This document shows positions 253 to 64,000 of a DNA stretch of 64,000 nucleotides, one piece after another. Position numbers and translations under genes: made by a program. The notes below the pieces were generated by a model. It was not told the DNA's origin, ran no database searches, and saw nothing but the letters and a program-made list of their open reading frames with translations. This DNA comes from Bilabrum cf. latius (taxonomy: Eukaryota): assembly GCA_965178125.1 (NCBI GenBank), contig OZ237749.1, forward strand, positions 620,001 to 684,000, read 5' to 3'. The first letter of the stretch is position 1. Every line of letters begins with the position of its first letter.

Positions 253-3038
253 TCACGAGCTCTCCTTGGCTTGCCCGATGAACTTGGGGTGCCTGTCCAT
301 GTCCGGCATGATGGTGCGGCCAGAGGCCCTATCTCTTCCTAGCGGCATGAGCCTCTTGCCCATGGTCAGGGCAATATCCTCCGGCGTTCTCACGTCGTGG
401 AAGCAATCGAATAGCGCTTGCACCACCGTGTAAATGTTCCGCCTCTTCGGCCCGATGATCTTGGCCGTGTAGTTCTGGAAGCCCCCAAGCTCCATGATGG
501 TCTCGATTGTGTAGTCGCTGCCAGAGGGGATATCGTGACCCGGGCCCCTTGACATGAGCAGCACCTTGATCCCGTTCTTCTTGCCGACCAGGTCGTGGTA
601 CAGCTGCCCGCGCCACGTGCTCACGTGGATCATGTCCTTATGCGCGGCTTCGGTGGCTAGCTGAGTGGCCCTCTCGGCGTCTTCGTGCCTGCCTACGCCG
701 TACCCTATCCCACCCACCCCGTTACCTGCCACTGCAAGGCAGCGGTACGTCACCTCCATTCCACCACGGATTGTCTGCGAGCACGTAAGGAATGAATGTG
801 GGGAGAAGGAAAAGCACCATATCGATTGGCTGGGGAAGCGCGGCACACAAAGGAGTGGGCTAGACTGTTGTAGCATTGGGCAGCAGCAGCAGCAGCCGGC
901 GCAGCGTCCCCCTCATCAAGCCATGCAAAGTTGTCCTCAGGCCGAAGCTCGGAGAAATCTCATGTGTGGAATTTTTGCTGTTCTAATCCTCGGGATCTGC
1001 CGCGCGAAGCTTGCTATGCTGCTGCTTCTTGCTCTCTTGCCTACAAGATCACGAATGCACGCATCTCATAATGGTTCTCACGTTGTGTGTCTGCGACATG
1101 TCCAGCAGTGCCATGTCTGGGCTCAGAAGGGGGCGGTTGGGCATGACCAGCGGCTGCATGTAGAGGCGGTGCAGCTCGCGCCGCTCCACGTCTAGTGCTC
1201 GCTCCTCGGGACGCAGGGTGGGGTCTGGCTTTGGCGCCGTCTTCCGCTCCCCGTCCGATACGAGGTCGTTCTCGCTGTAGATGGCGTCCGACTCGTCAGA
1301 GCCGCGCGTGGGGATAAGGGGCGTGGCCACCTCCTCTATGGCAGCCGGAGAGACCGTGTACAGCGGCCTCGTTCCTTGCATGGGAGCGTCGGCGCCGTAG
1401 TAGTGGGGATCCATGTTGAACTCTGGGTCGTCGGAGGGTCCGTCCTCCGTGCCCGAATCGCTGCCTTCGTGCTCCTCGGCGATCACAGTCGCCATCTTGC
1501 CGTTGCCGGCCGCGTCCAGTCCGCCCACCTACAGGAGTTTCCTCCTCTCCTCGGCGTCTTGCTCGGCGCTGATGCCGCCCCCAAGGCGCTCAACCTGGTC
1601 ACCTTCGTGCGCGTTTCTCTCCCTCCTGGAGAGCCCAGCGAGCTGTTCGCTCCTCCACTGGCGCCTCTCCTCGTCCTCCACGGTACTCGCGCTGCGGCGG
1701 GACGAGCTGCTACTACCCATGGACTGGTAGTCATCGCCATCGGGCTAATCGAAGTCGTCACCGTGCTCGGCAGCGAATCCAGTGTCGGCCTCGGCAGAGG
1801 CATCGTCGCCCCCCTCGCCGTCAAAGCTCGGCAGCACCCCGATACCGCCGCCCCCATCGTCGTTGATCCCATCGCCGTCGTCTGGGTCCTCGTCCGACGA
1901 TGACTCGGAGTCGATAAGGTCGTCGGCAACAAACACGCCGTGTGCGCGAAGGTGCTCTGGTGGTGCAGGCAGTCCATACCGCTCCCACATGGACTCTGGA
2001 AGCACGGTGGCCTCATCGTCCGGGTTGTGGCGCTTTCTCTGCAGGTAAAACTGGTTCCTTTCCCTTGATTTCTCGAACGTTCGCTTCCGCTCCGCAACCT
2101 TGCGAGCGCCCCTGTGCGTCGAGGCGACGGCCGGGGCCATTTCGAGGTTCTGCATGGTTCTGCGGTCGTGAACCTGCATGACCTGGGCCATGGATCGTTC
2201 CACATCGGCTGTCGCGATCATGAGCTCCTCTTGCTCCTCGCGGCGCGCTCGGACTGCCCGAGCAGCGGCGCTGTCACCGAAGCCGAACTTTGCTCCTATT
2301 TCGTCCGAATCCATAGCATCAAGATTCCCGCTGAGATCTTGAAGTTCCCTAAGTTCTTTTCGGCGAGAGACGTTTGCTTTCCCGTGGAAAGCGAATCGCT
2401 CCCCGACGAAGCCATCGCCTCGGCTTGCAGCCAGTCCGTCCCCTGACAGGAGGGCATCAATCTCATCTCTGTCTTCATCAATCCTGTCGAAAGCGCCAGT
2501 CTCCTGAAGAGACCTCAGATACGATTCTGCCTATCTTCGCACGTCTGCTCAAGAATCGAGGGGGTGAGGGACGAGCGAGTAGACTAGGGAGAGGCAGTTG
2601 GCTGCAAGACAAAACCATCGCTCATCGCAGTACGATAAGCTGTGCAGGTACACCCAAAGCCACAATGTCAGCAAGAGGACGTTCTATTCTACCGTTCTGT
2701 TCAAAGCCCATAGGCAGCATGCGAACAGCCTCACTTGACTTGGGACCGCGTCGCTTGCCTCCTCCCTTCCCACCAGACGCAAATCTAACTTGAACGGCAG
2801 CGCAACTCGGCGCAGTAGACCTTGGCTGCAGTTGTGTTCAAAAAGAGGGGCTCAAGAGGGATTTGTGATTTGCGCAATCCCAGAAAAGACAGCTAAGGCA
2901 CACTGACATTACTGCCATGCTGCGATGCACAAAAATCAGTCTAAGCTAGCTCACGAGTAATCTTGCAGCCACAGAACTGGAGTGATTGACAATTGATCTA
3001 ATTACCCTTGCGCATGGTGGAATCACTCTCGACGACAT
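253..3038 (-). CDS. MRPS5: Mitochondrial ribosomal protein uS5m (S5 family) with long acidic N-terminal extension, ~719 aa, 4 exons
   Basis: Exons 3038-2955, 2825-2735, 2544-1082, 774-253 are joined by GT-AG introns, total 2160 nt in frame. The N-terminus resembles a mitochondrial presequence (MSSRVIPPCARVIRSIV...VRFASGGK). The C-terminus is an S5 domain (TIRGGMEVTYRCLAVAGNGVGGIGYGVG...IMELGGFQNYTAKIIG). Three in-frame TAG (2531, 1745, 1529); ends TGA. Confidence 0.85.
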
Positions 3039-3182
3039 AGTCTCGCGGACCTCTTTGTTGTGCCGCTGGTGCGTGCGGTCGGGCAGTCTTGTTTTGTGCT
3101 GAAATTGCACCGTACAACAATCCGAGTCCCAGCAGACCGAGAAGAGTTCAAACAGCGGGCTGCAGGCTGTGCCAAGTTAAAT
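3039..3182. promoter_or_regulatory. Putative bidirectional promoter between divergent uS5m and PRORP genes
   Basis: Only 144 bp separate the two divergent ATGs (3038 minus, 3183 plus). Inferred from geometry only. Confidence 0.45.
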
Positions 3183-6100
3183 ATGAACGATCCCTCGAAT
3201 CAGCCTGCTGCTAAGCGAGCTCGTACCGACCTTAAGGGGCCTACAGGTGACGGAAAATAGCGTAAAGATGTGAGCTTCAGTTTTGGTGCACGAGCACTGT
3301 GTCGGCGGCAGCAGGACGCTTCCATCGTAGAATACTCTGAGTCACTGTTATTGTCTACTATCGGCGGTCTTTGCTAGTCCTTGGAAGCTTTTCCGCGTGA
3401 TTGCCTCGAAGTAGCCACTGCAGGTTAGCAAGCGGCGGCAAAAGCGAAAGGATCCTCCACAACAAAAGCTTCGGCGCGATATTTAGGCGTGCCTTGAAGT
3501 AAATGATGCGCGCATGGCACTGGCACTCTTCAATGCTGCTTCAAAGCGCCCGAAGTAGTTCCCCTCAAGCGCGCACGTGACAACCATGGTCCTGAAGACG
3601 TGCGTCCGGTATCTGGAGACCGCACATGCCGGGGGGGAGATCGCATCAGTTGATAGAAGCAAGCTTAAGTCTGGCCTTGTCGACTTCGATGAGCTGGCGA
3701 GTGACCTCGCCGCTTCCGAGGCGGAGGCTGTGGTGCCGCCCAGCCTACCTGCTGCGGCCGGTGGCTAGCCAGGTGAAGCGGAACCAGCGATCAATCTGGG
3801 GCTGCACCCGGCTTCCGCAACGAGGCCTCCCTCATCATGGATTAATCAGCAAAGCGAAACATCCGCCGCAGGGCGCATGCAAGCCCCTGGCCACGCTGCT
3901 GGCTTGGGCCCACTCACTCCGTCCAAGTAGGCCTCGGCTGGCGCTGCATCCTCGATAGGTAGCCCCAGCGCCATCCGCATCACAATGAAGAGCGTGCGGA
4001 GAGCTTTCGATGCGTGGCTTGCCGACCCAGCCACGCAGTCGCAGCTAGCCCAGGCTGAACAGGCCATGCGTGAAGGGCTCTCGGCTTCGCAAGTCTATGG
4101 TGCATCAACTGCCGGGAGAAGCCGGGCGGCGGGTGCAGTGCCCGACGCGCTAAAGCAGCACAAAGCCAGAAAGCACTAGTAGCGACTGGAGCAGTACTAG
4201 CACCAGCAGCGTTAGAAAAAGAGAGATTGGCAGAAGCGGTTGCATGCAAAAGGCAAGGGTACTGCTGGCAAGGAGGAGGAGCAGGAGCCGGCAGGTGCGC
4301 TCGGTGGCGGCAGCGTGGCAGGAGACGTCGGTCGTGGTGCGGATGAGCCCAGCGAAGAGCAGGCTAGGATTGCAGCAGAAGCGGCCAAGGTCAAAGCTCT
4401 GGCAGATTCCATGAAGAAGGTCGAGTCGGTGTTCTCCATGTTCATCCAGTGCTGCTGCCTGCTTGGCCGCTCGGACGAGGCCCAGGACGCGCTCGCCACC
4501 ATGCTGGAGAGAGGCGTGCCCACCAAGCTGAGGACCTACCTTCCCATCCTGAAGCGGGGCTGCGAGGACGGAGACGTGGTGCTCTGCGCGCACATGCATG
4601 GCGTGATGCTGCATGAGGGCCTGCACCCCGGCAACGAAGAGTACGCTGCGCTGATCAGGTCCTACCTTCAGACGGCCTGGACAGAGAACAGGCACCTGCT
4701 ACCACTCAAGGTGCTGCCGTGCAACGGCAGGCGGGGGGAAGCGAGGCGTACGATGACCAACAGGATCAAAGCGGCCCTATTGCGGCGCTGGTCTACGCAC
4801 CATGGCGGGGGCGTGAGGTCAGAATTGGCATCCCTCGCGGGCTCTGCTCGCGATAGCGTGCGGGCGCAGCCCCCCGTGCACGGTACAACCGGCGGTTCTA
4901 TGGAGCGGCCGTCTTCGAGGACGTCGTATCAGCTGCAGCCATACGAGTTCATGCAAGGCCACGGGGTGCGTCGGTTGCCCAGCGATGCCTCTGACATCGA
5001 AGGCATGTCGGGATCTGTCACTGCCCTCCCGAGCTAGACAGGTCGTCCCCTGCCTGTCACCAGTCGCACACCCTCGAATGCTTCTCTGGACGGAGTACAG
5101 CCGTCAAAATGGCTCACGGCTGCCACACGGTCGGGCGCGGTGGGGGACGGCTCGCCGCAGCTCACCCCGATCGTCACCCCCTTGCTTGGTGCGGATCGAG
5201 GAGGCGACAGTTCCTCGGCTACAGCCCCCAAGTTGAGCGACTTGGTGATTCCTGGCACGCGAGGCGCCGGGCGTTCTGTCGCGGCAGACAAGCTCACATC
5301 CCAGGCAACTGTGGGGTCTGGTCGGCAGCCGGCTCGGGGGGGTGTGGGAGCCGCTCTGACACCATCTGCATCCGCAGCTAGTCTCACACCGTCGATTGGG
5401 AGCTCAGGTGACTCTCCAACGAAGCTGAAGCACACAGCCGAGCAAGGTGCGAACGCGGGAAACATCAGCTAGAAAAAGGCAGCGGGAGCGGACTCCACCA
5501 GCAGCCTTTCGGCCGCGGGAGCGCATGGGTCTGAAGCGAGGGGTCAGGCTCGACTTGACAGTGGCGCTGCTAGCGAGCTGCGGGTCTCTATTCCAAAAGC
5601 AGGACGTCTGCGTGATGAAGGTCTAGATGCAGTCCATAGGGCAGCAAGCAGCGGCACCACTGCCGCACTGGCCGGCAGCTCTGTGACGAACTGGGCCCGG
5701 GTGGACAGCGGGCCAACGGTGCTGCATTCTAGCAGCCCTTCCAAGCTGCTGCGTGCGGGCATGCCGCAGCCATCCACGCCCATCGTGGGGGCGGGGTTGC
5801 TTGCCCCAGGTGGGATCGGGGCAGGTACGCACAGGCGCCAGCGCCCCCACTTTTCAGATACTGCAAGCGTGGGCAGCTCCACTTGGAAGAACTCGATGGG
5901 TCTGCGCCGATCAGCAGCGCGCAGATGGGGAGGACCCCTGCCGCCGCTGCTGCGATGGTGCCTGACCCAGCTTGCATCCGACGTGCAGGTGGTCGGTGAA
6001 TCCCTGGCCATGGCATTGCAGGAGGTCTTCCGCGCCCCTGTGCTGCGTTCGGCTGGGTGGAGGGTGGGACGGGCCGTGGTAGGTCCAGATGCGCAGTGCC

Positions 6101-8964
6101 AGCTTTCTCACAGGAAGCTCCGCAGCCTCGATCTTTCGTACCATGAGCTGAGGCAGCTCGCCGACTGGGCCAGCAGCCTGGCGTGCCGGACCGCCAGGCA
6201 GAAAGCAGCGTTCGAGCAGTTCCGGTCGTGGCTGCAGACCAACGGAGCCTACGACGTCATCATTGACGGGGCTAACGTTGCGTTCTGCAATTAGAACTTC
6301 AGGGGTGGCGCGTTCTCGCACGCCCAGATCGATGAGGTGGTCAGGCACTTCGAGAGCGAGGGCAGGAGGCCCCTCCTCGTCCTGCACGAGCGGTGGCTGA
6401 AGCCAGAGACGAACCTGGCGGTGCATCGCACCAAGAACTACAGGCAGAGCAGGAAAAAGGCACATTCTGAGAACAGGCAGCGTTTCGACAAGCAGCTGGA
6501 CGGAGGCGACCTGCCTGAAGCCACAGGGATCACGCTGCCCGGGCAGGGAGGACCTGCCGACTCTGCCTCGGACAGCACTCGAGCCAGCGCCCCGGCCCCC
6601 CCTGTGCTCGGCACGAAGCGCACCCGCGAGCAGCACGAGGCTGCGTCTGACGCTTCAGGGTCTGCCCCTGCAGTCGGTAGCGAACAGGCCGCCGTGCAAG
6701 GCAGCGGGGCCAGCGACTCGGCCAAGGGCGAGATGCAAGACAGCGCGGCCGTGGAATCACACAGCGACAGCGACTCGGACCACTCGGATGGTGACGATGA
6801 TGATGACGACGATGATGATGATACCGCGAGCGTTAGTCTGGAGCGGCGGCAGCAGCGGGAAATGAACAGGTGCATCCGGCGCTGGCGGAGCGTGCCCGGC
6901 CTGCTCTACGCCGTGCCCCAAGGGAACAATGATGACTGGTTCTGGCTGTATGCTGGCGTGACCCAAGGTGGTGCCACTCTCATCGAGGAGGCAGAGCACG
7001 CCGAGCGGCAGAGGCGCATGCGCCAGCACTAGGAAGAATCGACTCCATCGGTGCGGTCTGGCGGTGGTGCCGGGAATTCGGGTAGCCGACCGCACGACGC
7101 TGGCAGAACCAGTGCCTCGCTGCCTCCACCCCCTCCCGTATCGTCGGTTGGAAGCATTGCAAGCAAGCTTGCCGCTACGTCCGCTGAAGCGATGCCTTCA
7201 CCTCGCGCTGGGACAGGCATGGCCGCCCCAGGCCCGCCCAACCCGATGAGAGGGGCAGCCGATGCTCAGGTCAGATCTGCCTCAGCCGCTGCAAGGTCTT
7301 CCAAGCCAGGGAACAAGGTGGCCACACGGCCACAGCCGGTGCGCCAGCCGCAGATGGACAGTGATGTGATCCCAGCTGCAGCTGCGCCAGCTGCGAGTGC
7401 CTCCTCGGGGATCGATGCGACGGCTGGGAAGCTGGTTACCTCGGGATCAAAAGGCGCGTTTTCGTACTCCTCCTCCTCCTCGTCCTCTGCGTCCGCGTCT
7501 GCGTCGGCGACGATTGGGCAGCAGCAGCAACAGGTCCCCGCCCCTGCCATCCGCCGGCCGCCGCTGGCCCATCGCGCTTCCTCGGCGACTTCGGCAGCGG
7601 CCACAGACGGCAGCGTGGACGTCCACAAGCAGGGCCAGGAGCAGATGATGAGATCACCGGTGGCTCTGTCCGCCGGAGACAGCCCCAACATGGGGTCTGT
7701 TAGTGAGGCGAGATACGGGCACGCCGACGATGTGGCCAGGCTGGAGCTCGGTGCCGCGCCTCCAGGCAGGAGCGGAGTGGACTCTGCAGGCATAGAGGGC
7801 GGTTCCTTCGGTTCTGGTCCAGCGGGCGCGTATGGAAACGATCGACGGGCCGACACGCCGGCATCCGTCGTGTCTGGCGTGTCTCTAAACCTGCCTACAC
7901 ACTCGGCGACCCGCAGCGGCGCCAGGTCCATGGCGGCTGGCCATGGGCCTGCCAGCGTGCCTGCGGGTCCAGGTAGCGCAGCAGGCTCGATGGTCGCGAG
8001 CGTGGGCGGAGGTGGTGCCGCCCCGGGGACAGTGGGACGCGAGAGCTCTGCCGCAAGCGCTTCCGGGGCACTAGGTGACGTGGGTGCTGCCTCTGTTGAC
8101 ATATCGAGCCAGCTGGGAATGGACGCTCCGCTGCTGCCTGCAGGGTCTGGAGCACGGAGCAGCGGTAGCGGTGGTGGTGGTGGTGGTGGTGGTATGCTGC
8201 CACCTGCCGATGCGGGTCCAGGGGGAAGAATGGAGAGGCACTCAATCGATGGAGAACCCGTGGAGCATGGCAGGCATGGCGACAGCCTAAGGCGTGGGCA
8301 GTGGCTCCCTGCCCGCGGCGCACACCGGGGTCGGCAGCAGCAGCCAGGTCGGCAGGAAGCGGGCCGCAACCTCCTGCTAGGCTCTTCCGCCCCCTCGGAC
8401 TCCCATGGTGTGTCCGTTCCGGGGATGCCGGGGCGCTTGAAGGCCCCGTGGGCGGGGTCTTATTCGTCACACCAGATGAGCACAGGCATGCACCTGCAGC
8501 AGCCGTCACCCAGGAGCGCTTCCCCTAGGAGCGTGCTGTCAGCCGCGAGTGCAGGAGGGGCTTCGGACCGAGCTGCGATCGACCGGTTCCTTCCGCAGCG
8601 GGGTGGATTGGGCGCATCCGAGCACTCGGGAGGCGGCCGGACTCTGGTGGTGTCCAACGACCAGATGAGGGACCACACGTTCATGATCCTGGAGCAGAAG
8701 CTCTTTTTGCTGTGGAGAGAGAGACACCAGGTGTCGTTCCGGTTCGACGATTTCGGGCGGTCCTATGGCGGTGCTCCCAGCCGCAACCTGACGCTGACGT
8801 ACCCGAAGATTTACTCCCACAGGTCGCAGCAGTCGAGGGACGGCATGGCGTGGTTCTTTCCCATCTCCGGGACGGCGAGCCGGTGGGTGTCTGCTTGGGT
8901 GGATCCCCAGGCAGAGGAGGAGGACGTGGATCAGATTCCAGCTGGGGTGGGCGGTGGTATGTAA
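3183..8964 (+). CDS. PRORP: Protein-only RNase P (PRORP; PPR-like repeats + NYN metallonuclease), ~1875 aa, probably nuclear
   Basis: Exon 3183-3269, intron 3270-3423, then one frame to TAA 8962-8964 with 13 TAG in total. PPR-like segment (ALATMLERGVPTKLRTYLPIL). NYN motifs YDVIIDGANVAFCN[TAG]NF, LLVLHERW, PQGNNDDWFWLYA, LVVSNDQMRDH, WRERHQV. NLS-like PAAKRAR and KRRQKRK at the N-terminus. Confidence 0.9.
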
Positions 8965-13139: not shown

Positions 13140-13446
13140 GCTGCAAGTCAAAAATCGATTGATGAAGTTAGCGAAAGATTTGCGCTTGGGATGCTTCCAG
13201 CCAGGCTTTCCAAGGAGATATCCCGCCAACAAGGGGAGAAATTCCATAATTACATCCAAATTATGTAGGTAACTCCCATCGGAAAGCTTCTTACCTACGA
13301 TTTGTGGTACTACACAGACGAATACGATAGCGCTGTTTTGGGTCCACCCGAATCTGCTTTTTTCGAATGCATTCGCTACAATCGGTCGCGGAACCTGGTC
13401 GCAAGAACACTCGCTAGTGCAACTGGTGTTGTTTGTCGGTTAAGCA

Positions 13447-14487
13447 ATGGACTCTGATCTACCGTCTCCATCGTTTGTCATAATTTTGGACCGATGCATG
13501 AAAAATTGCGGGAAGCTGCTAGCTTTGTGCGAGGGTGCAGGCGCAACTGCACGTCCACACCTCAAGACGCACAAATGCGCCAATGTGGCTCAAATCCAAG
13601 TGGGTGGGGACAAGTTGAAGCCCGTGGCTGTATCAACTGTAGCTGAGTTGAGATACTTTGCCTAGAAGGGGTTCCGGGACGTCTTATACGCTCTCCCGTA
13701 CGAGCCGTCGAAGGAGTCCGCAATCGCGAAGGTGCAGGAGGCTAATCCAGGGTTGAAACTGAGTCTCTACGCAGATTGCAGAGAAGGGATGAACCTAATA
13801 TCATCATACACAGCGAAACGGCCTGGAAGCTGTATGCCGGTGTATTTCGCTGTCGACACGCCTGGATACGGTCGTGAGGGTGCGGATCCGTCGTCCGATG
13901 ACGCCGTGCAGCTAGCATGCGATCTCGCAGACGGGATAGCGTACCCCAACTTACGACTTGAAGGCCTGTATTCTCATAGCGGAAACGCGTACAACTCCCC
14001 CGAGGAGGCCAGAAGCGTCGCTGCGCGCGAGCTATGGGGCATGGTGGAATTCTGCAAGCGCATGGCGGCGGCCGGCGCACGTCACCCTCCAGCACGGATC
14101 AGCATAGGATCCACTCCATCCTTCGCAAAGATCACTGTTGAAGACCTCAGGGAGGCACAAAAGGCTCTCAATGCCATCGAGTGGGGCGGCTCGATAGCAT
14201 CCAAACCCGCCGGTGTTGTTTCCGTGGGCTAGAAGGCCTCGCGAGAAGCTAGAGCTGAGCGCGATGGAGAAGAAAAACCAGCCACAGGCGAATCAGCAGC
14301 TGCCGGTAAGGGTGAAGCCGATTCGGCTTTACACCGTGAGAGAGAGGCCGTAGATGGCGGCCCAGTCGCGAAAAGAGCGCGTACAGAGGCAGCTGCCAGC
14401 ATCGCTGCCAAGAGCGGTGCGGCGGGTGGGACCACCACCTCTGGTGGAAGTGCAACCAGCGGTGCAGCTGAGAGCCATAGTGGCTCA

Positions 14488-14524
<37 letters not shown>

Positions 14525-15027: not shown

Positions 15028-15372
15028 CTAGTGTGATGTTGGTTAACGCCTGTCTCCAACATCAACGCAGTATGCCCCTGCAATTCAAGTATGTCGTGTG
15101 CTCTGCAAGGCCCCGGCACGATTATAGTGTACATGAAATTGTCTTGCATCCAGGGTGCGTCCTGGTTTTTACCGTAGTATCGGGTACCGAACACGCTTGC
15201 TCGCGGTTCGCTTCATGTTGCGACCACTTCTGTGCTTGCGACACTAGACTTCATAATTCGCTTTGCAGAATCACCAGATTGGCCAACCGGTTCATTCCTA
15301 TAAAGTTAGATGAATTTATGAGTTGTATGACGTGGGAGCGGGCGCAATAAGCGGCTAATTCATCAGTTTGAT

Positions 15373-46671: not shown

Positions 46672-46745
46672 CGCCAGTTTCAGTTGCGTGTTTCAATTCG
46701 TGCTTACAGTGATAGTAGTGCTCAAATTATATCGCAGTGTGACAG

Positions 46746-48481: not shown

Positions 48482-51400
48482 TTATGTCATCAATTTTAGT
48501 AGCACTCCAGCAGGATCGCTCAGGGCTGTATCTAGAGGGAAGGGACCACGGCGGCCGGTCCACCTACTCTTCCGCTTTCCCTTCGTGTTTGGCCTACCCT
48601 TGGGAGGTTTCGGGGGGCCCATGATGCGTTTATGTGCACGTTTCAAGGTCTGGGCCACACTTGAGCTGCTACGTACACGCTGGATGGTCCAAGGATCCCG
48701 GTTGTCCGTGCTTGCCTCTTCCTTCGAGCTCTGTGCCTACGAGCCGATTTCCACCCTTGTCCACCGTTCGAGTTTGCCTCGCGATTCTTGCTTCTACGAA
48801 GCATCTTGCTTGTGACTGCTCACCTAAGTTGCTATTGTCTTCGTAACTGAGCGAGTGCTCCCTCGCTCTGACGCGAGCCGTGCTGCATTATCTTCCACCC
48901 CCCGTGCCGAAGAATGTCTCGGATCTTGGCTTGCTGTGCCCTGAGATGCAGTTGCATCGCGAGTTAGCGCAGCTCCGGCTGGAACAAAGCTGTCGCTTGG
49001 ATCGTCTGCAGGGGTATTGTCTGATTCGCTCCAGGCGCCGGCCTGGGTGCTCTCCGCAGTCGTGACCCGCTGCCTCCTCTTGGCCGCCATGCGAAGGGCC
49101 TGTGCCCTGGTTATTGTTCCCTCGCGAACAATGTGCTTGGCAGCAATTCTGGCACTCAAAGAACCCAGAGCGTGCTATGAACTCTCCCTCTGCTTCTGCC
49201 AACCCGAGCCGTCTGCATGCTCTGGCTGCACCTCACGCAGAGGTGGTGAAGCTGGACCTTTCACCGGCACATGAGTCCTCCTATGGACGATATCTCGAGC
49301 TCGAGCATGCCTTCCTGCTAGTGATCGAGCAGTCTGCGGGCGGCCCCGCATTCCCTGGCGCTATGTGACAGAAGCAGCAGAGGGTTGCAGCCGACGGACT
49401 GCATGCGAAGGTCGGGCACTCAGCGGCCGAGTTCTCCTTGGTGGGGCGCGCGGAAGCCCTCTCGGTAGCAAGGCAATTCCGTCACGCCTATGCGGCAGCA
49501 TCGGGCCGTCTGACGGCATCATCGAGGGTAGGGTGGCAGCACCAAGTGCCTATATCGGCTGCTCTGTCCTGAGGTCGCCACCAGCCTTTGCAAACGAACT
49601 GACGACCCCGCTGGTATCGGCCTATACGATGGGCTGACTGGCCTCTTCGTGTATTCCAGCAGCAGCAGCTCCACGTGTAGAGCCCAATGCATGTGCTCGC
49701 GATTCTGACGGGGTCAAGTGTCGATTTGATCGGAATGGGGCCACGGCAGACTGCGGCCTGCGCCTGCGCAGGGCCGCAGCAGTGTGCACACGCAGAGGTT
49801 CTGCCCTGTTATCGTCGCTTGTATCACCTCCATGAGGCTGGCCAGCGCGTTCTTCTGGCTGCTGCAGCGCATGCACGTGAAGATCGCAGTTCTGATGCTG
49901 CTCTGCGTGCCATGTCTAGGATGTCTTGGCAGTCAGCTTTGCACCGTTCGTGGCTGAGGCTGCAGCGAGAGCCACATCGGCCTGGATGAGCAGCACAGAC
50001 CGAAGGAATGGAACACCGCCCATCATGATCTGTACCTCCTCGATCTAACGGTATCCTGCACTGTGTCCTCGCGATAGGGTACCTGCTTCAGGTTGTTTGA
50101 GCTCTGTGGAATCGCATGGCTCGGACCCGCCCCCTTCGATCGCAAGAAGGACCTTTCCAGCATGCAGCTCCAGCTTCTACGACACGCGACGAAGGCTCAA
50201 GGTGAGGTCAGCAAGAACCACAAAGGTCTCAAATATCCTGGCAGCGCTGTCCTCCACTGCAGACTAGTGCGAGAGGCCACCGTTGGTTGAGGGGACAGAG
50301 CCAGCAAGAGCCGCGTCGATTCCTCGTGCTACCACCAAGAAGTGATCCATTGCTGCGGCTCTCTGACGCCTGAGCTCGAGGCTTTGATCGCCTGTCTCAG
50401 CATCCAGTGCTGGCACAATCTCTGCGCAGCACCGCACGTATGCATCCAGACTGGCGCGAGATAGCACGCCGACCACATCGTTGACGCCCATTCGAGGAGT
50501 CTTCTTGTTGATGGTTCGCCTGCCTAGCATCGCAAGGAGCGCGATGCAGGCCTCAGCCTCTTCCAATTGCTACTTCAGCTGCGCAATGACCATCTCTCGC
50601 CTGGTCGCCATCACATGGATGGCATTCATGTATGGCAGCAGCAAACCAGCGGTTGTTTGCGGAGGCCCCGTGTCCGGGTCGAACGGCTCCGGAACGACAA
50701 CACATCGCCCATCGCGCCCCCGCATCCAAAGCTCTGCTGCTCTCGGCAGCCTCCGCCACGCATCGTTCTTGTCGTGGTCAAAACCCATGCTGGATGCTCC
50801 TCGTCTTGCCTCAGCAGTCGGCTTGAATCCAGCGACATCCATCGTGCTCTCGTCAAGAACCACTCGCCTGTCAGACTGGCGCGCTCGCAGCCGCGGTCCT
50901 GGCCTACGCGAGGCTGGCTGTATCTATTGATCACCGCTGGAGTTCTGTACTCGGTATGACTCAACCGGAAGGCGTGGGGATCGCTGCGGTGCAGTCACTA
51001 CTCTGCCGAGCACGCCAGCCTGAGAAGGCTGCAAAACACTTGTTGCGTGACTGCTGCAAATACGTTCATACTGCGATTGTGCTCCGCGCTGCCGCTGGCC
51101 CACCTTCTCACAATCTATTCCAACATCAACGGCTGTGTGCATGCCCGTCTGGCCTACTTGGCTGCCAAAGCCAGGCGCAGTGCTCTCGGCACCAGTGCCC
51201 GAGCCCGTGCCTGTGCCGTGGACTGGTGTCGTCGTCGTCCGAGGCGAATGCGCCTCAACTGCGAGACCTGCAGGGTTCACAGTGCTCGGCAATACTGCAA
51301 TGATGGCACTGCTATCGCGCCACTCTATCGATGGATCAGCTGGAGCAGGAGCAGCTGACGTGCGGTTACGAGCCCCTGCGGCAGCCGCGGACGCCGGCCG

Positions 51401-54400
51401 ATCCGGCCTGCTCCTAGCCTGCCTGTACACTATGTGCCGTGGCGATCGTGACTCGATAGGCCCCTGCTACAGACCACTCTCCTGACTCGAATGCCGGCTC
51501 CACTCTGAAGCGCGGGAGGAGCGCGCCCGGTCCAGCATGGCACGGTGGGCAGCAGCACGACTGAGCTGGTCCCTGACACCAGCTTCCCTGCGCCTGGCTG
51601 CCTCCAATCCATCGGCCGTGGCTTTTGCTTTCCGACTGGATACGAGTGATGCCCGCTTACGCCTGTCCTCTAAAGCTACTGCAGATCTAGGCCGTGCCCT
51701 GGTACTACCGACACTTTGAACCGCTCGGCGATCGGCCGCGGAAGGCTGCGATCGACCACCCTTTTCACCTTGGTCTCCATCGCGCTCCCCGCCTGCAAAC
51801 TGCAGCGCAAGCGCTTTGTCGCCATTGCCAAGTCCCGCGAACAGCTCCAACCTCCGACGGTCTGCCTCCTCTTGCGCCCTTGATGCCGCGTCCTCCGCTT
51901 CGCGTCGCCGCCGCTCCTCGCTAGTGGTCTTGCGCTCGCGCTTCTCGCGTCGCCAGCGGATCGTTCTTGCCGTCTGCAACCTAGTCCTATCACCGAACCC
52001 CTTTCCCACCCGTGTCACGCTGCGACGATGTGCCCTTGGAGATGCGCTCCGCACCCTGCGCTTGCGCCTCCTCGACTTGCGCTTCAGGGCCCGAGCATCC
52101 GCAGAGCCTGCATCAGTGCCTGTGCTGCCGAGTTCACCCAGCGAGCTCTCGCTCGCAGCTGTTGATTCATCCAGCAGGGTGCCAACTCCAGCCCCAGCCG
52201 TTCCCCGCAGACCGGCCATTGCGCCTCGCAGGCGGTCGATTTCGCCGGCGCCTTGCGCCACCTCCCTGACCTTCTGGTCAGATTTCCACCGGACCCCGTG
52301 CTTGCGCAGAGCCTTAACATATTTGCCGAATCCGAGCCTCTTTAGCTCTTTCGGATCGAGCTCGTCAAACTCGAAGAACCCTCCCGACGCTGCAATGGCA
52401 CGTGGCGGTGCATCGGCGGGCACAGTCGCCTCATTGGCGCTGCCCCCAGAGCTGCTTCGCGCAACGAATGATTCCCCTCTGACCCGACGGTTCGCTGCAA
52501 TCCATGCGGCATCTTGCAGTCCTCGGTTGCGTGGCGACCGCCGGCCGTCCGCGAACAGAGACCCAGCTGTGGAAGTCGCTTCACTTTCCTTTGCCACATG
52601 AGTGTGTGGTAGGCAGCCCGACTGCGCAGTCGGATCCGATGGATGGACGCTGCCTGCGCTCGAGCTCGCGACCGCACTTGCAAGCGCATCAGCTTCAGCT
52701 GCTCCGGTGCTGCCGGCCGCCAGTGCCCAGAGATCCACTGCTGTGTAGCTCCGGAACACAACACCAGCATCAGTCCCAACCGCATTTCCCGAGAAGGACT
52801 AAGTATGCCCCGGAAGTCCATGACTATCGGCAGCAATAGATTCATCCCGACTATCGGCTGCCCGGGCGCTGGCAGCATCTTCCCTGCTCTGTGCTGCTTC
52901 TCTTACATCTGCGTCTTCCACGGCCGTCTGCGCCTGAGACCGTCGCAGTAGCGACGAGAGCCTAAAGGAGCCGGTTGCCTGCATCCCACCGCCAAGCAGT
53001 CGAGCCGTCTGCTGCCATAGGGCCGACTGCTGCTCCTCTTCCACCGCTAGCTGCCGGCGGGAACCACCCCAGAATGCCCTGTATCTTGACCTCGAGAACT
53101 TGAGCCGCTCCCTATTTTCCGAGGCCTGCGCGCCTTTGGATGCAGCATCAGGAGGCTGGGCGTGGCCCTATCTCCTTGTCTGGGACAGCCCACCGTGGGG
53201 AGGCTGCTTCCTTGTCCTCGTCCTTGTCCTCGTCCTCGTCGCCCTCTGGCTCCGGCTGCTCGTCTCCTTGGACCCAGGCGTACCCCCTGCGAGCTGATCT
53301 GGAGCTGCATCTCCATTTCTCAGGAGTGCCGTCTGGTCAGCGAATTCCTGCGGTTCGCTTGCATCCTCGCAGCTGCCCGTCTCGCTGTTGCTGTCGCTGT
53401 AGTACAGCTCGACCTCCTCGTCTCCTTCAGCTTCACGGTTGGCGCTGCTATGGGATTCTTCAAAGGGGCTGTTGCTCTTGCCATGGCCCTGCATCTCGCT
53501 GTGGGTCCCCAGGAATGCGTCGAGTGCATCCTCGTCCGAAATCTCAACCACCGGAATCTCACCGAAACTACCCAATCGATGAGGAGGGTGAGCCTGAGCC
53601 TCACGGTGGCGGTGTTGGTCGTGAGGTGCGCCCCGCCCGGACTGCCCGTCGGCATAGGCGTGTCCCGATGCCCTTGCAGCATCAATTTCCGAAACGTCAC
53701 CGATGTCAGCCAGGCCGCCCGGCTGCCCGCCCACCGACTCCAGGAAAGCAGCTGACCTCCCGGCGCACCAATGCCTGACCTCCGGCAGCACCGCGAGCAT
53801 GCCATCAGTGAGGGACTCTCGAACCTCTTTGGGTACTCGATGGACTCCTCGGCCCACGTCGTAGATATTCTCAACCTCCTTGCGGCGCTCGGCCTGTCGT
53901 GCTTCTGCTCGCCTGCGCTGCTGGACGGCCTTGCCGTCTGCCTTCTGCAGCGATCGCTGCCACATCTGCTCTTCTTGGTCAGCAGCGTGATGCAGTTTAT
54001 CTAGCTGCTTGATGCGCTCCTCTTCTTCTCTGTTCCAGCCAAGGTGCATTCCCCAGGACCTGCCGTCCGGTCCGCTCAGGTCCCCCGTGGCCAACAGATC
54101 CTCTCGTTTCGTCTCCTCGTCACAAATGGGACAGCCCTTCTCCGTGAGCTCTTGAATTCGTTGTTTTCCATCATCTACTGCTCTGATCCGGCTATTGTAC
54201 GACTACAGCCACTTTGATGCAAGCGAGTGCCGCTTTTCGACATGACCAATGACAAAGCTCTGCAGCAGCCGCGGAGATCCAGCCAAAGCTTGCTTCACGC
54301 TGGAAATGGGTGTGGTAGGCGGAATTTGGGCCAGGGTTTCTTTAGCAAGCCTGAGATTGAGCCTGTGCACAGCACGCGGGCTGCGTGGCAGACTACTTCG

Positions 54401-54568
54401 CACGGACCCGCCTTGTGGTCGATCCGGTACCTTCTCTTGCTCAGCAGCTTGATGCAAGAATTCATCGTACAGATCCTTTGCTTCCGTATAGCTCATTGCT
54501 CCACGACGGGCATCCCTTTCCTCTACGAAATGTGCTGTGGGTAATCGAGCCTTCAACGAAGAATCCAT
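48482..54568 (-). CDS. Hypothetical protein (~2028 aa), largely disordered/coiled-coil, intronless
   Basis: Nine minus-strand ORFs (54203, 53168, 52799, 51467, 50924, 50570, 50264, 49622, 48824) share one frame and each ends in TAG. The first TAA/TGA reached is TAA at 48482. Confidence 0.7.
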
Positions 54569-54708
54569 CGGTGGTGCGCCACACCACCCAACGGATACCA
54601 ACCAACGAACACTACACGGAGCTCCTGGAAACGGAATCGAAGCCGATAGCATTCGAGCGAACTGTCATGTCCATATCATATCGAAAGCATTTGAGTGCGC
54701 CGCATCAA

Positions 54709-56316: not shown

Positions 56317-56546
56317 TATGCAGAACCGTGATCGTATACCTTGAGAAACTAGTGGAAGATTCCGATACTCCCAACTGAAAGTCCGTTGCACTACATGTTC
56401 CGCAACTCGGATCCGATCGGATTTGCGCGGCGCCGAAGTGCAACACCGTGGACGATTGTCGCGCTCAGCCGTCGCTAGCCGAGGATACCAGTGCCTGCGA
56501 GAGAATACACAGTGTTGCTAGCATTGAACTTGTCAATTCAAATAGG

Positions 56547-58604
56547 ATGGCTTCGTCAGGCTTGAGAATCCTGGATGAAGAAGATGGGGACTCGGGAAAG
56601 TCAGGCAGTTCCTACAAGATGCCTTCGATTGGAACAGCAGCTTCTAGCAAGCGCCGCGTGTCGTACTTTTATGACCCAGAGATTGGAAGTAAGATTATCT
56701 CGATAGAGTCCATAAGCTTTATGAACCACCGCGGCGACACTGCTCTTATATTACCATAAGTCTCGATTTTGCTCCTGCAGATTGGCACTATGGTCAAGGT
56801 CACCCGATGAAGGTAAGTCGTGCAAAGCTTCCGTTCTGAACTTCGTATTCGTGTGTTACACACATAAAGTTCAGCGCACTGCCTGAGTTTCCAGAACAAA
56901 TGACACGGCTGGTTCACTCGGTTGCGCCTATCGCTCAATGCCCCGCAGCCTCATCGAGTGCGTATGGCGCACCACCTGATTGTCAGCTATGACCTGTACC
57001 GCCAAATGGAAATTTATGTGAGCCGCACCTGAGAAGCTGGGACATTGTTGGAATCCGGGCTTTTCCTTCCATTCCAGGGATTGTGTTGCACCGCTCGACG
57101 AACTCGCAGAGACCGCCCCTAATCGATGCCGCTGAAATGACGAGGTTCCACTCGGACGACTACATCAATTTCTTGCGGGTGATCACACCCGATAACATGT
57201 AGGACCATCTTCGGGAATTGCAGCGATGTGAGATGCTCCGCTCGGTGCGAGCGCACCCGGCGCCCAAATGGGTGATTCCATCCCGATACGTACTCGTGGC
57301 CAAATAGTGAAACTGATCATGTTTTTCATAATGTTGTCCTTTATTGAATTGCAGTTGCTGTCGGTGAGGATTGCCCAGTTTTCGACGGGATCTTCGAGTT
57401 CAACCAGCTCGCCACGTCGGGATCGATGGGAGGAGCCGCTCTTATCAACGCGGGAAGGTGTGACGTGGCTATTAACTGGGCCGGTGGGTTCCATCACGCC
57501 AAGAAGTCCGAGGCGAGCGGGTTCTGCTACGTGAACGACATCGTGCTGGCCATCCTCGAGCTGCTCAAGGTGCACCGCCGCGTGCTGTACATCGACATCG
57601 ACATCCACCACGGGGACGGCGTGGAGGAGGCCTTCTACACCACGGACCGGGTCATGTGCGTGTCCTTCCACAAGTACGGCGATTTCTTCCCCGGCACGGG
57701 CCACTGGGAGGACATCGGGTATGCCAAGGGCCGGAACACGAGCATCAACTTTCCCCTCCACGACGGGATGAACGACGAGGCCTACCGCACCATCTTCAAG
57801 CCCATCATCGCGGAGGTCATGGCTAGGTACCAGCCCGAGGCCGTGGTGCTGGAGCTCGGGGCCGACTCCCTGGCGGGGGACAGGCTGGGCTGCTTCAACC
57901 TTTCTCTCAAGGGACACGCGGAGTGCGTCGAGTTCGTCAAGTCGTTCGGGCTGCCCACCATCCTGCTGGGCGGGGGCGGGTACACGATGCGCAACGTGGC
58001 TAGGTGCTGGACTTACGAGACAAGCGTGATGCTCGGCCGAAGCATCCCTGACGAGCTGCCGTACAACGAGTACTTTGAGTACTACGGTCCCGACTATCGC
58101 CTGCACATTGACACCACCAACATGGAGAACAAGAACGACCGCAAGTACCTCGATGACGTCACTGCCAAGCTCCTCGGCGTCCTCAAGGAGCTGGAAATCG
58201 CCCCGTCAGTGGGCTATGACACAGGAGCGGCGGGCGGGGTGTCCCACCCCAGGCCCATGGAGATGGACACGGGCGCCTAGGATGACGCGAAGGATCCAGA
58301 CGAGAGGGACATGGAGGCGGAGGACCGACGGGCGGGTGACGAGGGGGAGATGCACTCGGGGGAGAAGGACCAGGACCACGACACGGTGGTGGAGGGCAAG
58401 TCCTCCATGCCCTCGAGCCTGGCCATGCAGGATGACGATGGGGTGCAGGGAGCCGCGACTGGGGGCGCCGCTTCAGCTGCAGCCGGGGCGGCCGGGGCTG
58501 GGGCTGGGGCTGGGGCTGGGGCAGGGGCAGGCAGTGCCTCGTCGTCTTCCTCTGCCGAAGCTTCCAAGGGCGCGTCGGGGTCGGCGGCGATGGAGGACGA
58601 CTGA
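56547..58604 (+). CDS. HDAC1: Class I histone deacetylase (HDAC1/RPD3), 5 exons
   Basis: [88 protein letters not shown]. Four introns starting at 56689, 56813, 57018, 57228. TAG at 57200 and 58278; ends TGA. Confidence 0.96.
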
Positions 58605-58790: not shown

Positions 58791-60465
58791 TCAACTGGTT
58801 TTGCCAGAGTCGGGCTCTTCTATTGTTGACAGATGCTCGTCCCCGCCCTGCATGCTGCCTCCCAGCTCCGAGCCCGCCGCATCATCATGAGGCGCGCCAA
58901 AACCCTCGTGTCCGACCCCAGCCGCCCTGTCCGAATCTCTCACCGCACCGTGCGCATCCTTAGGTTCCCCATCGACAACTCCTGCCCCTTGCTCCCTGTC
59001 CAGCCGACTGGGTGGTCGCAACCTCAGGTTTTCCGGGAGCCTCGCCGCGATGTCTGCGAGCTGGCCGTCTACCAGGTGAGCGTACCGCTTGCCGCCGTAC
59101 CGATAGTACCGGGGGTCCGCCGTGGGCTGCCTGGGGGGAAGCCTGTCCGATTCTTTTCGCAGTGCCACGAGCACGCACTGGCAGCACGACGTGAGGCAGT
59201 GAAGCAGGGCGCAGATCAGAGCCACCGGGGCAAACGGATATATCGCACCGGCGATGGAACGCTGGAACGGCGCCGCGCAACCTGGCCTTCGAGCATCCGC
59301 GGCGAGGCAGGTCGCTGAGACAGGGAACAAGTAGGGGCAGCCGCCGTGCCCCTGCAGAGGCCGGAGTGCCGCCAGCCCCTCCGCCGTGAAGTTGCCACTG
59401 CCTGCACCGGGCCCGCCGTTCCCCTGCAAGGCGCTCTGGTCTGGGATCGGATCAAAGGCCTCGTGCGACCGGTAGCTGCCGTCCTCAGACACGAGGCAGA
59501 ACTGCGAAGGGGCGAACCATCCACCGTAGTGCGCCCTCGCACACCGCTGCATGGCCTCGACCGCCGGCAGGTCCGACCGGAGGAGGCTGTCCCCATCGAG
59601 ATCGTGCTTCCACCACGCGTCCACTGGGCTGATTACGTCACCGGGGGAGACCTGGGCGCTGGTGTTACTTGCTGCTCCTGCTCCTGCAGTGCCGCCGCTG
59701 CTCCCCCAGAACAGGTCGGGCCTGTCCTCCACGAGGACCGCGGTTTCCTCTGGTCTCTCAGTCAGGTTGAAGTAGAAGTCACCGGGGCTGCATCGAAGGG
59801 GCGCGCCCCACCCGCAGCACGAGTGCTCCTCTTCGATGGAGAGGAGCCTGCGCCTGTAGGTCTCGATGCCTGCAGCAGCGCCGTGGTGGTAGTACAGCCA
59901 GAGTCTCAGCATGCGAGAGGTTTGCAGGCTCGCCAACTGGCGCTGGCATTTCGGGGAGTCGATGCTGCTTTCATCGCCCCGCAGGAAACACGCATCGGAG
60001 GCCGCCATCGACTCGGAGCCGCCAGCGTCAGGGATCAGCCCAGGCCCTTGCCCCGCCGTTGCCGCAACCGTCGCGCCAATCACACCGAGCACGGCAGCGA
60101 CGCAAACTTGCATGCTGCAAAAAATAAGTAGTGCAAATTTGTTGTGCTAGCTCACGGCTGCCGAACCGCATGCAGCGATCGGCAACTGAGTCCATCCGGC
60201 ACAGCACAGACCGGCGCTCCACAGCTTGGAAACGTTGCCAAAAGCTGTGAGATAGTCCGAATCCAGGAGAAGACGGAGCGCAACCCCGAAATATAAAATC
60301 CAGTTGATCTGCGGCTCATTCGGCTAAGGGTAGCCCGGTACTAGCTCATCATGGACACGCAACGCTCATGATACAGCTGCATTGATGACCTTGTAGCCAA
60401 TCTCTCACGCCGTGAAACAGCTGCATTCCAAGCAGGCTGCGCAAAGAGGCAGTCCTGTTGCACAT
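58791..60465 (-). CDS. Tetraspanin-like 4-TM protein with enlarged extracellular loop
   Basis: Exon 60465-60409, intron 60309-60408, three N-terminal hydrophobic segments (…ACGSAAVS[TAG]HNKFALLIF…), CCG motif (HSCCGWG), further Cys, then TM4; ends TGA. Confidence 0.6.
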
Positions 60466-61515: not shown

Positions 61516-64000
61516 ATGCAACCCACCATGATACCTGGCAGCCTTGTTCGTACCACTGTGGCCGCGAGGCCTCACGCCGGATACCGAAGCAGTGGCAGTA
61601 GCGGGGCCCCCCACTCCTTGGTGTGCCTGCGGTCCGCAAACACAATCACAGTGCCCACTGATTTTCGCCAAAGGCGTGCCCAAACCGGTTTATGTTACTC
61701 TCGGCTCTTCGGCGCTTCCGACCGGACAGGTCCAGCGAAGGGCTTTTTGCGACCAACACCGCACAGTTTGCAGTCATCATCTCTTGCGAGCTCCAAAGGT
61801 CCAGCGCAAGCCACAAATCATAGTGTAAGCGCTCATTAGACGCCCCTATGATATAGGGTTTGCAGGCAGGAGCCCTGCATGGCGATGGGGGCCACAATAC
61901 TCTGTTTGGAGGGACTGGACGGAGTTCGGGCGTTGGCAAACCGGCCATGTCTGCCTCCAAGGCAGCCTCTGTGGCCACGATGAACCCAAACGCTAAGAGG
62001 AGTCACTGGAACGATATGAGGTAAGAACAAAGATTGCCTTCGTCTCTCCTAAACGGAGTCGAACGGCCCCACGCCTTGGATATGACTTCTCACCGTGTTT
62101 GGGGTCGCCGATACTGCATCGCCCATTTCGCAGGGAGAGACAGAGGCACCTGTCCACGAGGTATCCTCTCCATGCAGCTGAATATTACAGTTTCAAGGCA
62201 GCTCACCTGTCAAAGCACAGGAAGCGCCGGCTGGACAGAGAGAAGACACGCAAACTGCTGCAGGGCCGTCGAGAGCAGCTGGTGTCTTAGCTGCCTTGCT
62301 CTGCCTTGCGGCACCCCAATAGCGCCCTTAGAATTACTATTGATGTTATTTTGGTCATTCTGACTCTATACAGTGGTGAGATAGCCATGTGCGATTTCCA
62401 CTGGCATGCCCCGATGGAGTAGCTGTTTAGCTTGTACCGCACGCTGCTGTTTAGTTTCAGTTGCCTTCCGACGCAGTCATGATGGTGCCTTATCAACTTG
62501 GCTTTGGCCTTGAGCCGCAGCCATGGGATTTTCTGTTCGTGCTAGAGGTCCTTATCGACATTACTTTCGGAGCCGATCTGACGCTGCAATTCTTCTCGTG
62601 GCGTGTCGCTCCCGTGTCTGGAGACACGCTCCTTGACTGCGGTTCGAACGCGAAGAACTATTTATGTTCTTGGTTCATTCTTGACCTATTGTCCACGGTT
62701 CCATTCGACAGGCTTGTGCTAGGCACGAGTGGCAGCACGGCGTTGCGAACGTTTCGGATTCTGCGTATAGTACGCCTCCTGAAGCTGCTAAAGCTTACCC
62801 GGCTCCTTAAGCTGCAGGACCGTGCGAAGCGGTTGGCCCGGATTGTAGGCGTCGGCCTGTACAATTCTGTCGGTGGGGTGTTCCAGCTCCTGTTTCTCAT
62901 TGGGTTTGCCACCCACATCATCGCTTGTCTTTTCCATGGGCTTACGCTCTTCACATTGTTCGGAGAGGTACCGGAGAGGGTGCTTCTCGAGGGAATTGCG
63001 GATGAGCCGGACCCCGATGCGCCAATGCCGGGTCTTTTCCGGGTCGGTGTGGACGGGTCCTCATCGGTGCTGAATGGCGGGGAGAGCTGGGCCACTCTGT
63101 ACGGGGAGACGAACGCAACGGACGCGCAGAGGTACGCGTCTGCCGTGTATTACACGGTAACTTCCCTGCTTAGCGTCGGCCCCGGCGACATTGTGTCGCA
63201 GAACGACACGGAGCGCTTCTTCTCTGTCATTCTGATGGTGCTGGGAGCCTGCCTGTTCGGCATCGTAGTGGCTGGAGTGAGCAAGGTGGTGGAGCAGATG
63301 TCCGCGTCGAGCCTCGCGTACCAGCGCAAAATGAACGAGGTGAACGAGTGGTCGAGCAGCAGGAAGCTGCCCACTCGCCTGCGCCAGCGGATCGGGCGCT
63401 TCTACCGGTACCTGCTGTCTCGCGTGAGCCTATTCTCCGAGGCTAGCATCTTGCAGGACCTGAGCACGTCGCTGAGAAATGAAGTGGTGGCGTGGTCCAA
63501 CGGAAAAATCGTGTACGCGATGGAGCCGTTCAGCGACGCGGACCCCACTCTGGTGACCCTGCTGGTCACCAGGATGCGGCCTTTGTTCCACATGCGGCAG
63601 GACGTGGTGTTTCGAGAGGAGGAGCAGGGCAGAGACGTGTTTTTTCTGGTGAGAGGGGCCGTGCAGCTGGTGGCTGCAGACCCTGGTGAAGCACCGCTGC
63701 AGTACTTGAGGAAGCAGGCGAGGAGGAAGAGGAGGGACGAGCTGCTGGACGTGCTCGGTTTCTTCAACTAGCGGGTGCACGGGTCTGCGGGCAAGCGAGA
63801 GGTCGAGGTGGCCGGGGCTGGGGGGACCGTGCGTGGTCGCGCCTCCGACAGATAGCTGCAGCTTCAGAACGGCGACAGAGCTGGCTCTAGCAGACCATTC
63901 GCGTTCGCGTCAGCTAGCAACTCGGAGTTCAGTGGCGACATCAGCGGCTCCATCCTCGACATCCAGCAGGCTCTCCTCGAGCGGGCACCGAAAAAGGCAA
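61516..64000 (+). CDS. Cyclic-nucleotide-binding-domain cation channel (EAG/HCN/CNG superfamily); runs off the window; 5' exons uncertain
   Basis: S1 LRHPNSALRITIDVILVILTLYSVMMVPY (intron 62375-62476), WFILDLLSTVPFD, S4 RILRIVRLLKLLKLTRL, pore SVGPGD, C-linker LPTRLRQRIGRFY, CNBD start VFREEEQGRDVFFLVRGAV. TAG at 62288, 63769, 63853. Confidence 0.85.

Follow-up and report, generated by a model that had tools for sequence, protein, structure and literature searches.

The stretch analysed here is a 64 kb window (64,000 nucleotides, the whole of which is meant by "the window" below) of the genome assembly of Bilabrum cf. latius (GCA_965178125.1, contig OZ237749.1, positions 620,001 to 684,000 of the forward strand). 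It carries eukaryotic gene content on both strands, has a GC content of 56-65% and contains no N bases. In the nuclear genes of this window, UAG is very probably an ordinary glutamine codon, while UGA (the main terminator) and UAA remain in use as stops. A first-pass annotation, made from the sequence alone, had proposed UAG = Gln genome-wide, the assignment of NCBI table 15, and for the 64 kb covered here this proposal is now backed by the structure of the open reading frames (ORFs), the continuity of protein domains across TAG, the retention of TAG in spliced contigs and the occurrence of glutamine at the corresponding positions of close relatives.

Read with the standard code, the window yields stop-to-stop ORFs of up to 643 aa. 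If TAG is treated as sense, ORFs of 2060, 1896, 1541, 1345, 1214, 1020, 987 and 909 aa emerge, and in 50 block shuffles of the window read in the same manner the longest ORF did not exceed 621 aa (mean 449). Treating TAA as sense instead had nearly no effect (longest ORF 676 aa). Treating TGA as sense lengthened the ORFs in every frame (longest 1072 aa), TGA being the most frequent of the three stop triplets in DNA as GC-rich as this; ORF length by itself is therefore insufficient evidence. A count of the codons within 16 ORFs from both strands (14,432 codons) revealed 105 in-frame TAG and not a single in-frame TAA or TGA, which bears out the observation that frames on both strands are interrupted by TAG alone. 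In the other two frames of the same DNA, TAG, TAA and TGA occur at 9.1, 2.7 and 18.0 per 1000, respectively. At 7.3 per 1000 codons, the in-frame rate of TAG is thus close to its off-frame rate, and some 300 in-frame TAA and TGA would be expected if the 16 frames were noncoding.

Fifteen of the 16 counted ORFs contain TAG. Beyond the 105 codons, a further 13 lie in the ORF at 25852-28581, one in the first exon of a subtilase gene, one in exon 4 of a histone deacetylase gene and three in the upstream exons of a nucleotide-sugar transporter gene, bringing the total for the window to approximately 123 (the first-pass estimate was on the order of 100), although some TAG near the 5' ends of ORFs may precede the true start codons. 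UAG represents about 15% of all glutamine codons in the window.

Matches in Pfam and the PDB cross TAG in a single frame in six genes, encoding PRORP, a subtilase, a UAA-family transporter, a D-serine dehydratase-like protein, a hydrolase and a histone deacetylase. The PRORP ORF (3274..8964, + strand; Pfam PRORP 1.1e-28 and PPR_long 1.8e-14), which combines PPR repeats with an NYN nuclease and ends at TAA, contains 14 TAG, 11 of which follow the first ATG; the first-pass count of 13 is therefore correct to within one or two. Three conserved blocks of the nuclease domain lie in one frame over 940 codons in alignments with PRORP1 and PRORP2 of the PDB. In the catalytic motif DGANVAFCN-TAG-NF, the TAG (6292..6294, + strand) aligns with the glutamine of the plant PRORP "QN" motif in all three of the plant PDB chains listed (two PRORP2 constructs and one PRORP1), as had been suggested.

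The secreted subtilase, of the proteinase K type (19205..23564, - strand; Pfam Peptidase_S8 and PDB matches), is encoded by two exons (23564-23322 and 23212-19205) separated by an intron (23321-23213, - strand), and its spliced coding sequence has 12 TAG and ends at TGA. The SLC35B-like transporter (23884..25398, + strand; Pfam UAA 4.7e-32) has five TAG past its ATG and a TAA end, while the D-serine dehydratase-like ORF (13444..15027, + strand; Pfam) has two TAG and ends at TGA. The alpha/beta-hydrolase ORF (46746..48629, - strand; Pfam Abhydrolase_1) has seven TAG and a TGA end; a PDB search with this protein returned repeat or low-complexity and designed-protein matches only, with no homologue for its TAG site at 48092, where the first-pass annotation had placed a GxGQ-type motif. 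Finally, the HDAC1/2 homologue (56379..58604, + strand; human HDAC2 in the PDB, 2e-141), with approximately five exons and a TGA end, carries one TAG in exon 4 (57200) and one in its acidic tail (58278). The earlier counts of about 12 TAG in the subtilase and two in the HDAC gene agree with these figures, and the count of about 13 in a leucine-rich repeat (LRR) gene corresponds to 14 in the ORF, 13 of them past the first ATG.

In order to follow TAG in DNA and RNA, contigs of four public runs (X1, X5, X6 and X7, from four studies) were compared with positions 19001-39000 of the window. Across these 20 kb, only 14 differences were observed, 13 of them in a tryptophan synthase beta (TrpB) fragment and one at position 19526, and none affects a TAG codon. 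Contigs of both X5 and X7 skip the GT..AG introns at 23213-23321 (- strand; the subtilase intron), 25865-25956, 33428-33519 and 38261-38406, and a further intron, 33674-33763, is skipped in X5 contigs alone. In contrast, contigs of the DNA-like X1 skip none of these introns, and the X5 and X7 contigs therefore derive from spliced RNA. At least 37 of the 49 in-frame TAG of the 20-kb stretch are found unchanged within the listed contig pieces of X5 or X7. For the subtilase, all 12 TAG are present in the listed pieces of both runs; indeed, a single contig of X5 (3630 nt) spans the junction of exons 1 and 2 as well as all 12 TAG, and differs from the window by one other letter. Assembly error, splicing-out and majority RNA editing are thus excluded for the TAG sites covered by contigs. 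The genes are not pseudogenes, in agreement with the first-pass annotation, as judged from frames free of TGA, TAA and frameshifts, from the spliced contigs and from the conservation of their proteins in relatives. With no UAA or UGA in frame, with continuous domains and with expression, UAG is a sense codon in conserved genes.

The identity of the amino acid was approached through close relatives, namely four public-database proteins with 68-96% identity to proteins of the window and 894 aligned columns between them. Low-complexity words dominated the word-indexed protein searches, in which only 8000 candidates were scored and one relative was obtained per search; an exhaustive search of representative proteins found two proteins. 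The relative of the UAA-family transporter (P0122, 390 aa, 68-70% identity) has glutamine at both TAG that it spans, 23971 and 24025, the latter being a site for which a glutamine of SLC35B proteins had been claimed and is now found in this 70%-identical orthologue. A 74-aa protein (P0123), with 96% identity to the product of the 2060-codon ORF, has glutamine at the one TAG that it spans (50572-50570). A second relative of this ORF (P0121, 220 aa, 80% identity) covers a region free of TAG. In total, three of four TAG align with glutamine, as do 27 of 28 glutamines of the window and only seven of 862 other residues (Fisher test: TAG versus other residues, p = 4.4e-6; TAG versus glutamine, p = 0.24). 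An empirical likelihood for the four sites, calculated with the substitution frequencies of the same alignments, places glutamine 9 bits above lysine, the next best residue, with leucine 15 bits and serine 26 bits below glutamine. When close relatives and distant homologues are taken together, glutamine remains far ahead as the best reading of UAG.

The ends of the relatives' proteins are also informative. P0121 and the relative of the subtilase (P0001, 283 aa, 89% identity) end, with no residue left over, right before CAG codons of the window; in the case of P0121, this is the CAG of aa392 of the ORF at 48482..54664. As glutamine makes up 4.2% of residues, the probability that two fragments end before glutamine codons by chance is approximately 0.002. 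The relatives may therefore carry TAG at these positions, where a gene caller applying the standard code stopped, and we infer such a TAG, opposite CAG in the window, for the organisms represented by P0001 and P0121. In P0123, the last three residues are unaligned, so that this fragment is uninformative as to the position of a stop. A metagenome scan with the subtilase kept 80 loci, none with an identity above 57% over the conserved motif, and yielded no close relative.

A mechanism may be proposed by analogy with other UAG-only codes (the account of these in PMC5304391 being the basis of the analogy): a tRNA-Gln with anticodon CUA would decode UAG. Duplication of tRNA-Gln(CUG) would be its probable origin, and it would be unable to decode UAA owing to a C:A mismatch. 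Since UAG is read and UAA is kept as a stop, CUA is the only workable anticodon. Recognition of UAG by eRF1 would, in addition, have been lost or weakened.

A number of observations weigh against glutamine, or against the evidence for a sense codon. A tRNA scan detected no tRNA gene in the 64-kb window, and the gene for eRF1 lies outside it. That no TAA or TGA was counted in frame is in part a circular result, as the ORFs were defined by those codons, and the count covers 64 kb only. X5 and X7 are taken as RNA on the strength of the splice joints in their contigs, the recorded library kind being a guess, and assembled contigs drop minority variants. The close relatives provide only four TAG sites, and at one of these, the TAG spanned by P0001, the relative has alanine. 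Moreover, distant homologues by themselves do not single out glutamine. In the subtilase alignment, glutamine is the commonest residue of the column at aa467 (32 of 119), but two other TAG fall in columns dominated by proline (109 of 119) and tyrosine (75 of 119), and further TAG columns are led by proline or alanine, arginine, and serine. The TAG at aa74 of the dehydratase faces aspartate, alanine or lysine in three PDB proteins, the TAG in exon 4 of the HDAC gene aligns with a serine of human HDAC1/2, and three TAG of the nucleotide-sugar transporter align in the PDB with serine (in GDP-mannose transporters of the yeast type), phenylalanine or leucine, and alanine. Summed log-odds over 12 distant columns amount to 3.8 bits for serine, 2.6 for alanine and 0.9 for glutamine, which is thus third. 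This comparison has low power, given that six CAG or CAA codons of the window in the subtilase alignment average 0.12 bits for glutamine, which again ranks third.

Among the other explanations, UAG might have a dual, context-dependent meaning, specifying glutamine inside genes and terminating translation near some 3' ends, in the style of Condylostoma or Blastocrithidia. In three of 14 ORFs (the nucleotide-sugar transporter gene and the ORFs at 39559-42522 and 43027-46671), the last TAG precedes the terminal TGA or TAA of the frame by 4, 4 and 12 codons, respectively, and a TAG used as a stop would look alike. However, at 7.3 TAG per 1000 codons, approximately 1.2 such cases in 14 are expected by chance, so that three is not significant, and none of the genes in the window needs TAG as a terminator. 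According to PMC5304391, the UAG-only codes treated there showed no termination at UAG. We therefore regard a dual meaning as improbable.

UAG could also be a sense codon for another residue, such as serine (as in Scotinosphaera), leucine (as in the rhizarian exLh), glutamate or lysine. The distant columns, in which serine and alanine score highest, and the serine found at two TAG sites (in human HDAC1/2 and in the yeast-type GDP-mannose transporters) lend this some support. In the close relatives, by contrast, leucine or serine occurs at none of the four TAG, and codons for these other amino acids behave differently from TAG: all 62 serines of the window, 83 of 84 leucines, 44 of 45 glutamates and 24 of 25 lysines align with residues other than glutamine. 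With likelihoods 9 to 26 bits below that of glutamine, and with glutamine in each of the PRORP chains, we consider another residue highly improbable. The composition of neighbouring residues was also looked at: within two positions of TAG, glutamine makes up 7.3% of residues, a share exceeded only by the 7.7% around glutamine itself and compared with 4.2% overall. This was dropped as evidence for glutamine, as a full-profile likelihood was non-discriminating, with phenylalanine and valine scoring best.

A third possibility is that both UAG and UAA specify glutamine, as in codes of the table 6 type (for example, Amoeboaphelidium protococcarum), UAA merely being rare in GC-rich DNA. TAA is indeed scarce throughout the window, with 438 triplets on the two strands against 1033 TAG. 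Nevertheless, if TAA were read as glutamine, the ratio of TAG to CAG applied to 142 CAA codons predicts approximately 33 in-frame TAA, whereas none was observed, and the code is therefore of the UAG-only rather than the UAR type. Of the 16 closed ORFs, 12 end at TGA and four at TAA, and reading past the four TAA ends adds merely 12-47 codons. In PRORP, the terminal TAA lies approximately 25 codons past the last block that aligns with the C-terminal part of plant PRORP. The chance that UAA is also sense seems very slight. Finally, the idea that TAG is not translated at all, because of dead genes, C-to-T assembly errors or removal by editing or splicing, found no support beyond the resemblance of the TrpB piece at 35129-36245 to a broken copy and has a negligible probability, given that TAG is the sole interruption of the frames, that the four runs agree at every TAG, that contigs with splice joints retain it and that the proteins are conserved in relatives at 68-96% identity.

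UAG read as glutamine with UGA and UAA as stops is a type of code already known, and the organism of the window is probably a further case. According to the overview in PMC11687900, UAG alone has been reassigned to glutamine in Iotanema spirale, Protocruzia tuzeti and two lineages of phyllopharyngean ciliates, to leucine in a rhizarian and in TARA ciliates, and to serine in Scotinosphaera; about eight lineages with an uncoupling of UAG and UAA are listed in that source and in PMC5304391. The window resembles the fornicate Iotanema spirale in that UAG alone specifies glutamine and is widespread within reading frames, UAA still serving as a stop (as described in PMC5304391). The mechanism inferred there for Iotanema consists of a tRNA-Gln(CUA) and an eRF1 T32G substitution in the GTS motif; for the other known cases, a tRNA-Gln(CUA) that differs from tRNA-Gln(CUG) by a single mutation is proposed, along with changes of eRF1 that weaken its recognition of UAG. 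UAA is reported to be the dominant stop of Iotanema (PMC5304391), in contrast to the window, where TGA ends 12 of 16 ORFs, and the two also differ in that the window encodes a bacterial-type uS5.

The ciliates Hartmannula sinica, Trochilia petrani and Protocruzia tuzeti share with the window UAG as glutamine and UAA as a stop (in the account of PMC11687900). In the same account, the phyllopharyngean ciliates have a GC content of 27-54%, use UAA most and UGA least as a stop, while the window, with a GC content of 56-65%, relies mostly on TGA for termination, has introns 90-146 nt long and carries many genes in a single 64-kb piece; a ciliate origin is unlikely. Codes in which UAR specifies glutamine (table 6), as described for many ciliates, Ulvophyceae, Hexamita, Streblomastix and Amoeboaphelidium protococcarum (PMC11687900, PMC6299283), have the meaning of UAG in common with the window and differ with respect to UAA, which is not a sense codon here (none in frame, four ORF ends). 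In the rhizarian exLh and the TARA ciliates (leucine) and in Scotinosphaera (serine), UAG is likewise uncoupled from UAA (as set out in PMC5304391 and PMC11687900), but the amino acid differs from the glutamine of the window. Code 15 of crAss-like and other phages, as treated in PMC9523058, shares TAG = Gln; those are bacteriophage genomes, whereas the window has spliceosomal introns, HDAC1/2 and PRORP. PMC6733595 deals with plastid codes and has no bearing on the present case.

The lineage of the organism is touched upon by two proteins. The uS5 gene (253-912, - strand) belongs to the bacterial or organellar type: its top matches in a PDB search are bacterial S5 proteins (~6e-17), followed by mitochondrial and chloroplast uS5, and none of the best 60 matches listed bears the name of a cytosolic eukaryotic ribosomal protein. 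A bacterial-type uS5 implies an organelle with its own translation. Such a protein would be unexpected in a fornicate lacking an organelle genome, and its presence argues against a fornicate such as Iotanema. The only other lineage hint, and the only one bearing on the "stramenopile-like" label of the first-pass annotation, comes from a K+ channel-like protein, for which the nearest Atlas clusters (SK-like) are commonest in Oomycota and Ciliophora. As a whole, the look-ups in the Atlas provided no taxonomy that could be used.

A literature search by topic, rather than by organism name, and confined to main texts without supplements, found no report of UAG = Gln for a GC-rich eukaryote that is neither a ciliate nor a fornicate. 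An independent origin of the code is plausible; whether it is an independent and so far unreported origin of a UAG-only-to-glutamine code, in a lineage that is neither ciliate nor metamonad, we regard as evenly balanced. On that view, with a GC content of ~60% and UGA as the main terminator, UAG would not have been rare beforehand, so that simple "codon capture" under AT pressure could not explain the change. The same code is apparently in use in relatives with 80-96% identity, judging from called proteins that stop where the window has CAG, and the relative at 70% identity has glutamine at the same sites as TAG of the window. If this is true, the change could be dated, and the tRNA and eRF1 steps could be traced among living relatives. 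Changes of the nuclear code are rare and the separation of UAG from UAA is rarer still; a GC-rich, intron-bearing genome that mostly terminates at UGA would be an independent data point, with a bearing on stop-codon capture without AT pressure and on how eRF1 drops UAG alone. In practical terms, annotation of this organism with the standard code would truncate almost every gene, and truncated fragments from relatives already exist in public protein sets (P0001, P0121 and P0123).

Among the remaining genes of the window, three encode proteins with matches to channels or tetraspanins: the K+ channel-like ORF mentioned above (15331..18393, + strand; Pfam Ion_trans_2; one TAG, TGA end), a tetraspanin-like ORF (58791..60365, - strand; Pfam, below the cut-off; two TAG, TGA end) and an ion channel ORF of the cyclic-nucleotide-gated type (62380..63999, + strand; Pfam Ion_trans 1.7e-21; four TAG), which is open at the edge of the window. 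The nucleotide-sugar transporter gene (33320..34847, + strand; Pfam TPT, PDB matches of the Vrg4 type and splice joints) has three exons, with introns at 33428-33519 and 33674-33763, six TAG in its last exon in addition to those in the upstream exons, and a TAA end. An arylsulfatase with several exons is also present within the window.

Several long ORFs lack a known family: 1049..2548 (- strand; 499 codons, three TAG, TGA end), 25852..28581 (+ strand; 909 codons, 13 TAG, TGA end, with two introns upstream), 39559..42522 (+ strand; 987 codons, 12 TAG, TGA end), 43027..46671 (+ strand; 1214 codons, six TAG, TGA end) and 48482..54664 (- strand; 2060 codons, 17 TAG, TAA end). The second of these is followed in the same frame by an ORF for a protein with LRRs and a long coiled coil (28582..33207, + strand; Pfam LRR_4 and LRR_8; TGA end), with a single TGA (28579-28581) between the two. 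As no further ATG occurs until 39 codons downstream, they are read as neighbouring genes. Two genes are free of TAG. The ORF of an EF-hand protein (54709-55854) is the sole long ORF without this codon, and the gene for an acidic ribosomal P protein (38100-38560, + strand; 119 codons, TGA end) is the most highly covered gene, with a mean word depth of up to ~1675 in X5. An Rfam scan of the 64 kb gave no matches.

Sequence near-identical to positions 19001-39000 of the window (mostly ≥99%) is present in runs filed under four organism names and belonging to four studies (X1-X8). Among the longer contig pieces listed for X6, depth is only ~2-3. The organism may have been a co-cultured partner, a parasite or a contaminant in some of the sequenced samples.

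The TrpB fragment (35129-36245, + strand) lacks approximately 150 upstream codons, and its frame is broken by an additional G within a run of G near 35285-35290. The X5 and X7 contigs at this locus are without the extra G, have about a dozen differences nearby and continue upstream into sequence from outside 19001-39000, while the DNA-like run X1 matches the window and holds a second variant contig as well. The fragment has the appearance of a gene copy that is truncated and frameshifted, the expressed gene lying elsewhere. The sole difference outside TrpB, at 19526, is an A to T change in the serine-rich tail of the subtilase, present in a single contig of X1 and a single contig of X5.

Repeats are a further feature of the coding sequences. 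The region at 36380-37912 (- strand) comprises four near-identical tandem units of ~57 residues, each closing with a run of 6-7 glutamines; a family search with this region gave no match, and the runs are polymorphic for a CTG insertion behind 37057. A run of approximately 35 Ala-Gly pairs is found in the hydrolase ORF (46746-48629, - strand), and shorter dipeptide runs occur in the HDAC tail (57348-58604, + strand) and at the end of the LRR protein (31795-33207). These dipeptide runs stem from microsatellites of the dinucleotide type inside the ORFs.

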